DNA of 59,648 bases, counting the filler, from Chthonomonadaceae bacterium (GTDB taxonomy: Bacteria > Armatimonadota > Chthonomonadetes > Chthonomonadales > Chthonomonadaceae): NCBI GenBank assembly GCA_035650735.1. It is 4 parts of 4 records of this genome, joined end to end, with 100 filler letters (N's around TTAATTAATTAA, not from the genome) between each part and the next. Parts side by side here need not be neighbours in the genome. Positions count along the whole stretch, not along the records: positions 32,095 to 51,097 come from DASRGZ010000192.1; 3 more parts are not named here. The stretch is one strand, 5' to 3'. The translations under genes were made by a program, and so were the position numbers. The notes below the pieces were generated by a model that was given only the letters and a program-made list of their open reading frames with translations, was not told the origin of the DNA and made no database searches. Below, in pieces: positions 6,506 through 51,097 of the stretch. The stretch's first letter is position 1. Each line of letters opens with the position of its first letter.

Positions 6506-6682
6506 ACCTCACCCCCTTCCCCTCTCCTTCTCAAGGAGAGGGGAGCGGCCCCAGCCCTTTATCCCACTGCCAGGGTTGGGGCTACAATGGACTGCAAGGA
6601 ACGCCGCTCAACGGTTCGGGCCTCCGCCTAGCGACCCTGCGAACGCAGTGAGCGCATCAGGGAAGGGAGCCGGGGGGTTAGG
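6506..6682. repeat. REP/REPIN-like palindrome doublet carrying a nested 45-nt element (6566-6634)
   Basis: CCCCTCTCCTT-CTC-AAGGAGAGGGG and TCCC[insert]CCCT...AGGGAAGGGA arms, ends CCTCACCCCC / GGGGGGTTAGG. Confidence 0.85.
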
Positions 6683-13172: not shown

Positions 13173-13302
13173 TCACAAGGCAGAGGCGCGAGTATCGCCA
13201 GGCGGAGATCGCCAGGCAGAGCCGCGAACCGTTGAGCGGCGTCCCTGGCAGTCGAGCGTGCCCAGTCCCGACCCTAGCAGTCGTAGCGCCGTTCCTTGCA
13301 GT
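13173..13302 (-). repeat. Triple-nested 45-nt hairpin element
   Basis: On the minus strand: three ACTGCNAGG left ends followed by three TCYGCCTNGYGA right ends in nested order. Confidence 0.85.
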
Positions 13303-17726: not shown

Positions 17727-17826
17727 NNNNNNNNNNNNNNNNNNNNNNNNNNNNNNNNNNNNNNNNNNNNTTAATTAATTAANNNNNNNNNNNNNNNNNN
17801 NNNNNNNNNNNNNNNNNNNNNNNNNN
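17727..17826. other. Artificial contig spacer
   Basis: N44-TTAATTAATTAA-N44 (stops in all frames). Confidence 0.97.
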
Positions 17827-18007: not shown

Positions 18008-18022
18008 AATAGGGCATCACCA

Positions 18023-18340
18023 GGGCCCATAGCTCAACGGCAGAGCGCCCGGCTCAAGACGGCGCATCTCAGTCCGTAAGGAGATGGATGCGCTACAGAG
18101 GGCCGCTGCGGGAGCAATCCGGCAGCAAACACCTGTCAAATTCGGGGAAGCCTACGTCCTCCACAGGATAGGGTAATCCCGAGCCAAGCGCCTCTTCGAG
18201 GAGGCGAAGGTGTAGAGACTCGACGGCAGGTACCCCCTCGGGGTAAAGAGAGAGTCCAGCCCACAAACTCGAAAGGGACAGCGAAAGTTGTAGTGGGAAG
18301 CATAACTGGTTGGTTGTAGGTTCGAATCCTACTGGGCCCA
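18023..18340 (+). tRNA. tRNA-Ile2 (CAT), exons 18023-18054 and 18301-18340
   Basis: Spliced product GGGCCCATAGCTCAACGGCAGAGCGCCCGGCT|CATAACTGGTTGGTTGTAGGTTCGAATCCTACTGGGCCCA folds as a cloverleaf; G1-C72 pair and no GGG/CCC anticodon stem argue against fMet; CCA not encoded. Confidence 0.88.
18055..18300 (+). ncRNA. Group I self-splicing intron (IC3-like), 246 nt, no ORF
   Basis: AAATTCGGGGAA, AATCCCGAGCCAAG, GTGTAGAGACT, AGAGAGTCC core; P3 CCTGTC/GGCAGG; exon CGGCU pairs with GGCCG (U.G at splice site); terminal G. Confidence 0.92.
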
Positions 18341-18506
18341 TTTCCGCCTGCATCGCCGTGACCGGACCGGAAAGCGGGAAACGCTTTCCGGTCTGTTTCG
18401 TTTGGGGGCTAAGTCCCCACCCCTCGTTTGCGCGGCCTGATCTGGGGAACATCCTCGTGCGTTTTCCATTCTACTTTGGTAGTATTTCACAGGCAAGGAG
18501 AAGGCG

Positions 18507-25935: not shown

Positions 25936-26861
25936 GCCTGCTTACCGCTTTCCCCTGACCCCCCATCCCCACTGCCAGGGTCGGTGCGGCCCACGCTCGT
26001 GCCTCCGCCTGGCAGCCCTATCCGCTCGTTCCTCGCCAGGGAAGGAGACGGAGCCAGGTTGTACGCTCCATCGAACTGCCCCTCCAGAAGCGCAGGAGAA
26101 GAGGCCTGGGAAGGAACGTGTCCACTCGTGTCCCCCCCTTCCCTTGTAGGGTCGCTAGGCGGAGGCGCGAACCGTTGAGCGCCGACCCTGGCAGTGGGGG
26201 CCGGGGGATTAGGGGAAACATGAGGGAACGAGGCCGGTGAAGTAGACGGCTTCTTATCCCAGGGCAGGTGGATTTTGGGCTCTTTCCTGGAAAGAAGCCG
26301 CTGGATATTGGCACGGTGCTTGTAGATCGCCATCAGGCAGGCCACGAGGCCGAATCCCAGGCGGTAGATGTCACCGGGATAGAACAGGGGCATGAGAATC
26401 GGGAGGGAGAGAGCGCCGAGAATCGAGCCGAAGGAGACCCAGCGCAGCGTGAGCACTTCGATGCCGAACAGGCAGAAAGCGGTCAGTCCGACGCCGGGGG
26501 CGATGCCGAGCAGCGCGCCGAGGCTGGTCGCAATCCCTTTGCCACCCTGAAAGCCAAGCCAGACCGAGTAGTTATGCCCCAGAATCGCCAGCAGCGCCAT
26601 CAAAATCACCCAGGGCGCAGCCAGATGCAGCGCGGCACCGACTAATGGCGGCACGAGCCCTTTGAGCACGTCGAGCGCGAAGACGAGCCCGCCCGCCACC
26701 GGCCCGCACACCCGCCCGACATTGGTCGAGCCGATATTGCCGCTGCCCAGCGTGCGGATGTCCACGCCCTTCCACTTTTTGGCGATCCACAGACCGAACG
26801 GCAGCGAGCCGAGCAGGTAACTTCCTGCCAGCGCCGCGCCTATCGTCAGACCCTGCATCAT
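25932..26861 (-). CDS. plsY: Glycerol-3-phosphate acyltransferase with repeat-derived C-terminal extension
   Basis: SYLLGS, GSGNIGSTN, DVLKG, GH..S, GGKGIATSLG, HRANIQRL. Confidence 0.93.
   Translation of the reverse strand: MMQGLTIGAALAGSYLLGSLPFGLWIAKKWKGVDIRTLGSGNIGSTNVGRVCGPVAGGLVFALDVLKGLVPPLVGAALHLAAPWVILMALLAILGHNYSVWLGFQGGKGIATSLGALLGIAPGVGLTAFCLFGIEVLTLRWVSFGSILGALSLPILMPLFYPGDIYRLGFGLVACLMAIYKHRANIQRLLSRKEPKIHLPWDKKPSTSPASFPHVSPNPPAPTARVGAQRFAPPPSDPTREGGDTSGHVPSQASSPALLEGQFDGAYNLAPSPSLARNERIGLPGGGTSVGRTDPGSGDGGSGESGKQA
25952..26215. repeat. REPIN-like element inside the plsY 3' end, each arm carrying one 45-nt unit (25971-26015 +, 26152-26195 -)
   Basis: CCCCTGACCCCCC...GGGGGATTAGGGG ends; spacer homologous to the glnE insert. 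Confidence 0.85.
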
Positions 26862-36923: not shown

Positions 36924-38240
<1,317 letters not shown>

Positions 38241-38369: not shown

Positions 38370-38730
38370 GTAAGGGGAGGGGAGGGGGATAGGGCCTCTC
38401 CCATGTGTTTGACCTAACCCCCCGGCCCCCCACTGCAAGGGTCGGGCCTGCAATGGACTGCAAGGAACGCCGCTCAACGGACTGCCAGGGTCGGGGCTGC
38501 CATGGTTCGGGCCACTGCCAGGGTCGGCAAGGTTACGGCCCCTGCCTCCGCCTTGCGACACCTTGCGACACGGCTCTGCTTTGCGACACCCCTCCGCCTT
38601 GCGACCCTACGAGGGAAGGGGTGGCCCGGCTTCTCCTCTCCCCTCTACTTGGTAAGGAGAGGGGAAGGGGGTGAGGTCTGCTGGGGTAGGGCCTCTCCCC
38701 GGTTTTGGGGAGGGGCCGGAAAGGGAGAGT
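38370..38730. repeat. REP cluster containing a four-level nested 45-nt element (38432-38604)
   Basis: CCTAACCCCCCGGCCCC[L1 L2 L3..U4..R3 R2 R1]CCCTACGAGGGAAGGGG followed by CCCCTCT...AGAGGGGAAGGGGGTGAGG. Confidence 0.9.
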
Positions 38731-38758: not shown

Positions 38759-39655
38759 CTAGGAGGTTTTCCCGGTTGTGCCGGAAGAGGACGCTTCGGT
38801 CGGCGGCTGCATCGGGTTGGTATGGCCGCCGACGACGCTGCTGGTCGCGGTGGCCTGCTGGCGGCTCTCGCCGGTATGTTCGGTGCGCGCCCCGGCGGCC
38901 TGCGCCTGGGTGGTATGGTCTTCCCCTGCGCTGGGCGTGTAGGAAGGCCCCATCTTGTAAGCCGGATTACCTTCATGCTCGCCCGGACGGGATACCGTGC
39001 TGTGCGTGGGGGACGTGGAGCCGGCAGACGGAGCGGTCGTGGTCGTGGAAGGCGCTCCGGCCTGTATTTCCGCCGGTTGCGCCTCCGTCTGCACGGAGAC
39101 CGGCACCGTTTTGTGCGTGGTCGGATTCTGCTTGGGCAGATGGAGCTCCAGCATGCCGTTGCGGAAATTGGCGCGCACGGCGTCGGGCTTGATGTCGGCT
39201 GGCAGTGTGTACGCAAACTGATAGCGGCTGTAGCTGGAAGAGCGGCTCTGCCGGTGCTGCGTGGGCGGCTGCTGGCCTTCCTGACCGGGCGCGCCTTGCT
39301 CGAATGGAGACCGGCGTTCCGCCGTGAGCAGGATGCTATTGTCGGTCGCCTCGACGTGAATGTCTTTCGGGTCTACTCCCGGCAGCGCGGCCTGGATGGT
39401 GTATTCGGTATCGTTCTCATAGATATCCACGTCCGGCTCTATGCCGGACTGCGCGAACGTCGCCGGCAGGTTCCAGTTCCAGAGATCCGGCAGGCTGCGG
39501 CCGAAGAAGGCGCCCATCAGGGTATCCATGCGGCGGCGCAAATCCTCCATCTCACGCCAGGGGTCGAAGCCGGCTAACGCACCCTGGCCGCGCGGTCGGG
39601 CCAGAGCGCCCTGCGGACGGCGCGACAGCGCGCCACCTTGATCTCTCGCGTTCAT
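38759..39655 (-). CDS. Hsp20/alpha-crystallin family protein with long S/T/A-rich C-terminal tail
   Basis: PDVDIYE, LPGV...DI.V, ANFRNGMLELHLPK; GAGGAGG RBS. Confidence 0.88.
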   Translation of the reverse strand: MNARDQGGALSRRPQGALARPRGQGALAGFDPWREMEDLRRRMDTLMGAFFGRSLPDLWNWNLPATFAQSGIEPDVDIYENDTEYTIQAALPGVDPKDIHVEATDNSILLTAERRSPFEQGAPGQEGQQPPTQHRQSRSSSYSRYQFAYTLPADIKPDAVRANFRNGMLELHLPKQNPTTHKTVPVSVQTEAQPAEIQAGAPSTTTTAPSAGSTSPTHSTVSRPGEHEGNPAYKMGPSYTPSAGEDHTTQAQAAGARTEHTGESRQQATATSSVVGGHTNPMQPPTEASSSGTTGKTS

Positions 39656-43337: not shown

Positions 43338-43382
43338 CCCTCACCTCCTGTCCCCCTACTGCAAGGGTCGGGGCCAGAACGG
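43338..43382 (+). repeat. Truncated REP plus left half of the 45-nt element
   Basis: CCCTCACCTCCTGTCCCCCT-ACTGCAAGGGTCGGGGCCAGAACGG. Confidence 0.6.
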
Positions 43383-45678: not shown

Positions 45679-45860
45679 CCCTCACCTCTAGCCCCTACTG
45701 CCAGGGTCGGGCCTACAACGGACTGCAAGGGTCGCGCCTACAATGGTTCGGGCCACTGCCAGGGTCGGCAAGGGTACGGCCCTTGCCTCCGCCTGGCGAC
45801 AGTCCTCCGCCTTGCGACAGCCCTCCGCCTTGCGATCCACGCTGCGGCAGAGGGGTAAGG
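45679..45860 (+). repeat. REP with nested 45-nt elements (45697-45835)
   Basis: Three left ends and three right ends; inner unit GGCAAGGG-TACGG-CCCTTGCC with GCCAGG/CCTGGC. Confidence 0.88.
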
Positions 45861-50878: not shown

Positions 50879-51097
50879 ACCTCACCCCGGCCTACTGCAA
50901 GGGTCGGGCCTGCAATGGACTGCCAGGGGCGGGCCTGCCATGGTTGGGCCACTGCTAGGGTCGCCGGAGTTACGGCCTCCGGCTCCGCCTAGCGACACCT
51001 TGCGACACGGCTCTGCCTTGCGACAGCCCTCCGCCTAGCGAGGCCACCCCTCTCCTTCGTAAGGAGAGGGGCCTGACAGGAAGCACTCTCCCCTCTC
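50879..51097 (+). repeat. REP with nested 45-nt elements (50894-51041)
   Basis: CCTCACCCCGGCCT[insert]GGCCACCCCTCTCCTTCGTAAGGAGAGGGG; inner unit GCTAGG/CCTAGC and GCCGGAG/CTCCGGC. Confidence 0.88.

Follow-up and report, generated by a model that had tools for sequence, protein, structure and literature searches.

How repeats shorter than 50 nt move is an open question for REPs that lack a transposase, for CGTC-tagged repeats and for SDRs alike. The cyanobacterial SDR repeats, reportedly catalogued by Elhai et al. in 2008, are said to be 21-27 nt long, to nest in their own copies and in other repeats, and to keep their structure by compensatory change; an RNA route has reportedly been proposed for their movement. 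REP/REPIN-RAYT repeats are intergenic and lineage-specific, reach hundreds of copies and leave no target duplication (PMC8266576, PMC3116915, PMC6006769), and TnpA-REP is described as reading one strand of group 2 REPs together with their bulge and 5' foot (PMC8266576). REPs inserted into small palindromes are also on record, as are CGTC-tagged REPs with 8-9-bp stems starting AT, 4-5-nt loops and a CCA tail, for which no dedicated transposase is known (Di Nocera 2013, PMC3733652). Precise insertion of SDR5 into HIP1 is noted in PMC4390886, and the yeast mitochondrial GC42 element is outlined as a palindromic mobile unit of about 42 nt under structural constraint, whose copies merge and shuffle by recombination (PMC4478555).

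Here we describe a family of very small self-nesting mobile hairpins, apparently not reported before, which leaves a distinctive footprint and is present in about 800 copies in one uncultured bacterium, where the hosts are other hairpin repeats and the unit itself. This kind of element has a precedent in the self-nesting SDRs: SDR1, SDR4 and SDR5 reportedly resemble it in nested insertion into their own copies and other repeats and in compensatory structure. Compared with the reported features of SDRs, the unit differs in length (44-45 nt against 21-27), in its two stems with tandem G.A pairs, in a constant 2-nt target loss with junction base changes, and in phylum. It shares with REP/REPIN-RAYT repeats the four properties given above, and its imperfect stem has an internal irregularity as in group 2 REPs, but it is distinguished by the lack of a GTAG/GTGG foot and of a flanked tnpA-REP gene, by the loss of target bases, and by direct nests rather than the mainly inverted doublets of REPINs (PMC8266576, PMC3116915, PMC6006769). 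Like CGTC-tagged REPs the unit has no known dedicated transposase, and its minus strand starts mostly with TGTC and in some copies with CCTC or CGTC, letters that figure among the tags given for those repeats; unlike them, it combines two stems with a 10-11-nt loop and an AGT tail, and takes half of the tag from the target flank (PMC3733652). The likeness to GC42 extends to size, palindromic form, structural constraint and shuffling, whereas GC42 belongs to an organelle genome and has a putative AG target duplication (PMC4478555).

Nested arrays in the window and the source genome

The window, i.e. the whole 59,648-nt stretch of DNA analysed, comprises four contigs joined by N runs with a TTAATTAATTAA linker (e.g. 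17727-17826), and adjacency across the joins is no evidence. It holds 19 occurrences of the left motif of the unit against 2.1 by chance, and all eight sites listed in the original prediction are present. At 38432-38604 (plus strand), between an enolase gene (36924-38210, minus strand) and an Hsp20 family gene (38759-39655, minus strand) that serve as context only, recursive parsing confirms the predicted four-fold nest: 45+44+45+45-6 nt gives the observed 173 nt, each host having lost 2 nt. The left parts of unit 1 (38432-38456, 25 nt, broken at self-site 25), unit 2 (38457-38480, 24 nt, of the 44-nt type and broken at self-site 24) and unit 3 (38481-38513, 33 nt, self-site 33) lead to an intact innermost unit 4 (38514-38558, 45 nt), whose working fold is probably that of the minus strand. 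The right parts of unit 3 (38559-38568), unit 2 (38569-38586) and unit 1 (38587-38604) follow, all on the plus strand and all beginning with CA, the changed dinucleotide discussed below. The nest replaces the TT of the 5' arm of a class A host hairpin repeat (38413-38621, plus strand). Arms of units 1 and 3 pair incompletely and mismatches occur within the innermost unit; unit 1 is a mosaic, its right arm not fully matching its left.

The remaining sites vary in completeness. Class A hosts also carry an array with two left ends and one right end (6566-6634, plus), a single unit (25971-26015, plus) and a single 44-nt unit (26152-26195, minus); as originally claimed, the unit replaces TT at 6566, 25971, 26152(-) and 38432 within a CCC(TT)CCCT...AGGGAAGG hairpin, and empty host copies read TTCC. 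A three-fold nest with offsets 21 and 29 (13173-13302, minus) parses exactly and lies in a repeat class that flanks a Y1 gene. A left half stands alone at 43358-43373 (plus), its right part and host arm lost, a three-unit mosaic array at 45697-45835 (plus) would be 8 nt shorter if it were a clean nest, and an array at 50894-51041 (plus) has three left and four right ends. An exact parse is thus obtained for two of the five multi-unit arrays in the window, those at 38432 and 13173.

Across the source genome (G000; 6.5 Mb, 63% GC, 97.6% complete) we count 792 left ends, about 790, in 493 arrays of one to four units. A 13-nt left-end pattern gives 776 matches against 6 with a reversed control, and the length is 44 or 45 nt in 352 of 355 simple units. 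Only 11 of 395 arrays overlap long ORFs, which places the unit among high-copy extragenic imperfect palindromes of the 20-60 bp class. The idea that the nests record successive insertions is not borne out in clean form: in the genome at large a strict parser resolves only 113 of 208 multi-unit arrays exactly, so copies have also spread via recombination and carriage on host repeats. Broken inner-stem pairs are found in 36 of 406 intact units but, among interrupted hosts, in 34 of 65 at offset 25 and 23 of 58 at offset 33, even though insertion at offset 33 leaves the inner hairpin uninterrupted; at offsets 21 and 29 the counts are 1/19 and 0/16. Moreover, a 36-nt fragment captured inside one unit occurs 14 further times in the genome. 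The nests are mosaics: copies have exchanged halves, and entire composites as well as filled host repeats have been copied. Since composites spread and recombine, the Russian-doll parse is not their literal history.

Other features of this DNA were recorded alongside. Loops of the host hairpins (e.g. 6635-6670 and 26016-26050) also contain other, smaller modules of about 11-25 nt that are exchanged for one another, and UNCG-type loops are frequent among them. They point to additional tiny mobile families in a genome of which repeats make up about 3.5%. At 18020-18342 a group I intron (Rfam RF00028, 18058-18273) interrupts an apparent tRNA with a CAU anticodon, probably tRNA-Ile2, that ARAGORN missed.

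Insertion footprint and probable strand of the fold

Exact empty look-alikes (10+10 flanking bases) exist elsewhere in G000 for 157 of 396 simple units; these are paralogous look-alikes rather than orthologous alleles, and base-level comparison with relatives is precluded because flanking genes are only about 75-88% identical. At 150 of the 157 the net loss is exactly two bases without target duplication: a gap of 4 nt stands against a 42/43-nt core plus a 4-nt tail, so that a 44/45-nt unit has replaced two bases. The remaining gaps measure 5 nt (five cases) and 2 nt (two cases). The lost bases are TT, CT, TC, CC, GC or AC across at least nine host-hairpin contexts that have empty versions. 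Nearly all outer target sites fall in repeat families, three host classes being repeats that flank Y1 genes. Self-insertion occurs at four fixed offsets (21, 24/25, 29 and 32/33), and a nested unit always has the orientation of its host unit. A MITE of a DDE insertion sequence was rejected on the same two grounds, absence of a target-site duplication and the net 2-nt loss. The 59 same-organism metagenome loci show no filled/empty polymorphism; their sole gapped difference is one copy of a 21-nt tandem repeat in an ORF (G000:C133 versus L129, near 4645).

The predicted 2-nt deletion without duplication is therefore borne out, but the junction is not a plain 2-nt swap, as the dinucleotide that follows the unit is frequently not that of the empty site (CG to CA, CC to TC), a change absent from the original prediction. 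At offset 24/25 empty copies read CG or GG and filled ones CA in 68 of 69; at offset 32/33 filled copies read CA in 54 of 58, and only 8 intact units read CA there; at offset 29 TC follows in 16 of 16. In host B, 83 empty copies read CC and all 11 filled ones TC. Host C keeps CT (35/35), host A keeps CC (29/34), and GG target sites keep GG. In other genomes and contigs, the unit is followed by CA or TA in G010, in L114 and at two G001 sites, and CG is kept in three G001 copies. That CA after insertion is always new was rejected for two host classes with CA already present among their empty copies, which makes these classes uninformative on the change. A carried donor flank, junction deamination and selection are candidate causes of the change.

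In each unit an outer stem of 6 bp is separated by an internal loop from an inner stem of 5 bp, which is capped by a loop of 10-11 nt. Among 220 unselected units, all distinct, pairing at the inner positions 14-32, 15-31, 16-30 and 17-29 reaches 91, 95, 90 and 97% versus 70, 57, 49 and 50% when shuffled, and at the variable outer position 6-41 it reaches 48% versus 31%, with significance overstated in these tests because the copies are related and not independent. The unselected units are the valid test, since an alignment of copies picked for pairing at the variable outer position returns an inflated 98%. Of the two stems said to covary, then, the inner one does so, with compensatory changes among copies, and the variable outer pair far less.

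The minus strand turns mismatches into G.A pairs, at 12/34 in 200 of 204 distinct units, at 11/35 in 165, at 18/28 in 119 and at 6/41 in 48, whereas the plus strand has 8 G.A cells in these units. Folding energy is lower on the minus strand in 152/204 as RNA and 158/204 as DNA, and each of five copies modelled as minus-strand RNA shows the succession foot, stem, internal loop, stem, loop and tail (z -1.5 to -4.7). The working fold is thus probably on the opposite strand to the one written out in the original prediction, with tandem G.A pairs, an assignment that we infer rather than observe because the G.T wobbles at 19/27 and 10/36 favor the plus strand. The foot is ACT on one strand and variable on the other (TGTC/GATC/TGTG/GGTC/AGTC/CCTC); the terminal tag among 396 units is TGTC in 182, CCTC in 15 and CGTC in 3, two of its four bases lying in the target flank. 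The unit ends may bear a likeness to a type III CRISPR repeat handle. Identity with a CRISPR repeat or spacer was rejected, as units have no Rfam match and their junctions no duplication.

Candidate enzymes and competing explanations

The original prediction of a small non-autonomous mobile unit under structural selection is supported, as are the 2-nt loss without duplication and the lack of a mobiliser beside the unit; no nuclease or transposase gene flanked by it, as had been envisaged, was found. IS110 is absent from G000, where DUF559 occurs only as a domain of a 1561-aa frame and GIY-YIG only in a 618-aa frame. This genome has six GxxExxY, two four-helix-bundle and nine tyrosine-recombinase matches, and a covariance model detects no unit at the 16 scanned loci (five of the six GxxExxY included) or at the cas operon. 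It likewise finds none at 17 Y1/RAYT-like loci (three in G000, 14 in G001/G010), a single weak match (E 0.016) lying inside an unrelated ORF. All three Y1 matches in G000 look damaged, by an altered HUH motif, a split frame and an internal stop. Within the family, 32 of 42 genomes have Y1 genes and four have the unit. By eye, the ORFs beside arrays and those densest in flanking repeats look like ordinary genes, and two of them that lack a name resemble an aspartyl protease and a CBM9 protein; repeat-flanked genes are those most likely unassembled in a genome 97.6% complete. Orientation by GC skew shows no bias, by what is a weak proxy (90 vs 90).

Some of these genes have repeats of their own. 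Several of the six GxxExxY and two four-helix-bundle genes (L259-L263; L292-L293), namely GxxExxY ones, are flanked by short degenerate tandem repeats distinct from the unit. Two RAYT-like Y1 genes (G000:C166:80092-80433, L011; C166:12640-12873, L012), one with an altered HUH motif and the other split over two frames, have abundant flanking repeat families that host the unit, and these repeats are its targets, not its relatives.

We favor, with a probability of roughly 0.6, a two-tier mobile-element model in which the enzyme would be a single-strand hairpin processor. In the first tier, a trans-acting enzyme working on folded single strands would join the unit in fixed orientation into hairpin repeats or another unit, without duplicating the target but with removal of two of its bases and frequent alteration of the two that follow. 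The insertion event is observed, while the enzyme, its action on a folded single strand and its action in trans are presumed. The recognized strand would be the minus strand, with a 4-nt 5' foot, a 6-bp stem, a bulged C, a G-C pair and tandem G.A pairs, continuing into a 5-bp stem of variable sequence, the 10-11-nt loop and a 3-nt tail. In the second tier, recombination or gene conversion, together with the spread of the hosts themselves, multiplies filled repeats and composites and shuffles their halves, turning a few dozen site kinds into about 800 copies; this tier is visible in the pattern of broken stems at offsets 25/33 and in the recurring 36-nt fragment.

As to the enzyme, a HUH/Y1 (TnpA-REP-like) strand transferase is the leading candidate, tentatively held. 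In its favor, Y1-flanking repeats make up three favored host classes, and the bulged stem with a 5' foot resembles the anatomy of group 2 REPs. Against it count the lost bases, the variability of the foot and the fact that no gene is flanked by the unit: HUH peel-and-paste is not known to delete target bases, and a foot whose sequence varies and comes in part from the target cannot act as a fixed guide in the manner of GTAG. It is also conceivable, if somewhat doubtful, that the unit represents a separate class of minimal mobile DNA, a strand-specific 45-nt hairpin with its own chemistry, spliced into hairpins with two bases removed and the next C or G changed, possibly by a host-encoded enzyme that is neither RAYT, reverse transcriptase, IS110 nor DUF559.

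RNA-templated, target-primed insertion would account for the deletion differently: a reverse transcriptase or another polymerase would use a minus-strand RNA hairpin as template for synthesis into a nick, and a second cut would fall at a distance of 2 nt. A 2-bp deletion is also what R2 retroelements leave behind, good folding of the minus strand as RNA is indicated by the z scores given above, and its 3' junction is uniform where the other varies (the left end is fixed by the search pattern, but 1-mismatch searches gave few variants). We nevertheless regard this route as unlikely, as reverse transcriptases are absent from G000 by PF00078 or TIGR04416 and from G001 and G019 by TIGR04416, the one in G010 has no unit beside it, and there is no transcribed-strand bias (80 vs 65, p = 0.24). 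Outer sites nearly all in repeat families, strong mosaicism, the 59 loci without polymorphism and the failure to find an enzyme would also fit a unit that is no longer, or never was, mobile itself, a few old events having been amplified only by gene conversion and host-repeat mobility. At least 13 distinct site types with one precise 2-nt loss, further site types in other genomes, and structure kept in innermost units but decayed in hosts all speak against such immobility, which we consider improbable.

Still less plausible is a promiscuous Cas1-Cas2 of G000 as the mover. The genome carries duplication-insert-duplication scars that look like off-target Cas1-Cas2 spacer integrations; their periods are 60-78 nt in 155 of 191 distinct scars, with the main mode at the CRISPR period of the genome, and 16 of 159 touch units against 6.5 expected (two of the 16 being one lineage and one doubtful). 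Unit insertions, however, have no 30-37-nt duplication, are 44-45 rather than 36-38 nt long and lose target bases; the cas operon is without a unit, and an end-motif test on scars away from units is not significant (6/36 and 4/86 vs 9.7% background). That the nests are assembly artefacts of a simple repeat is, in our estimate, barely credible. The assembly is from short reads, contigs often end in arrays, left and right halves frequently mismatch, and Logan unitigs from three runs reach into the 38432 nest across its two outer junctions (up to 38456-38461, and again from 38592) with none of the pieces listed spanning its interior. But all 29 nested arrays in matching public metagenome loci are identical to G000, 60-nt flanks included, which makes assembly collapse unlikely; these assemblies break elsewhere than G000, some bridging its breaks, though they may share reads with it. 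Nested copies also occur in contigs of other organisms (L057, L114).

The scars deserve description in their own right. Their period modes are 61, 66-68 and 73-75, and the CRISPR array at C93:2501-7720 has a period of 66-68 (30-nt repeat, 36-38-nt spacers). They lie outside this array and genome-wide in G000 (e.g. C27:3627, C38:32117, C120:27847, C59:13819); four inserts match contig C15, and a few scars are degenerate mini-arrays or coding repeats. Off-target spacer integration by Cas1-Cas2 has been seen in E. coli under over-expression (PMC11788318). At G000:C93:7600-20000 (L255), one Cas1b/Cas2/Cas4 set serves a type I-B operon enclosing a type III-A module (Csm2, Csm3, Csm4, Cas10 and a putative ring nuclease), and an 80-repeat array adjoins it.

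Range and significance of the family

Among genomes the unit is confined to Chthonomonadaceae, and the named genome records that carry it are Chthonomonadaceae MAGs only. A whole-unit pattern is positive in four of 68 genomes of the order (G000 384, G001 5, G010 4, G019 1), so relatives have at most five whole copies each, in 3 of 67 genomes; the 13-nt left-end pattern gives 1-14 matches in 41 other family genomes, close to controls. The burst of copies is limited to one genome. A covariance-model search of 150 other genomes of the phylum, with 41 candidates scored per genome and G001, G010 and G019 not among the eight family genomes listed, returned no match, and viral contigs gave none. No Rfam family matches the unit and no description of it was found among the literature results listed, subscription papers being outside the scope of the search; to this extent the original prediction, which did not recognize it as a described family, is upheld. 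In metagenomes at least 134 stretches matched, and among the 80 examined 59 match G000 at 99.6-100%, two match it distantly and 19 have no long match. Seven of these 19 hold true relatives whose inner stems differ; nesting occurs in two of the seven. Other genomes and contigs thus present new target contexts and new inner stems.

Two copies in relatives stand apart. A 48-nt variant in G001:C161 (L285) has a reorganized inner part within the same kind of host hairpin, and the single G019 copy, at a contig end, is identical to G000 copies including the captured fragment and may be a binning artefact.

For the question of how repeats below 50 nt move, this family offers an unusually sharp footprint over hundreds of copies: fixed orientation, no duplication, a 2-base loss, a site-dependent junction change and four self-sites. 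Any candidate enzyme must reproduce this footprint, so a simple oligonucleotide assay can decide between candidates. An enzyme able to place a short structured strand in hairpins with no duplication would, moreover, be of interest as a tool.
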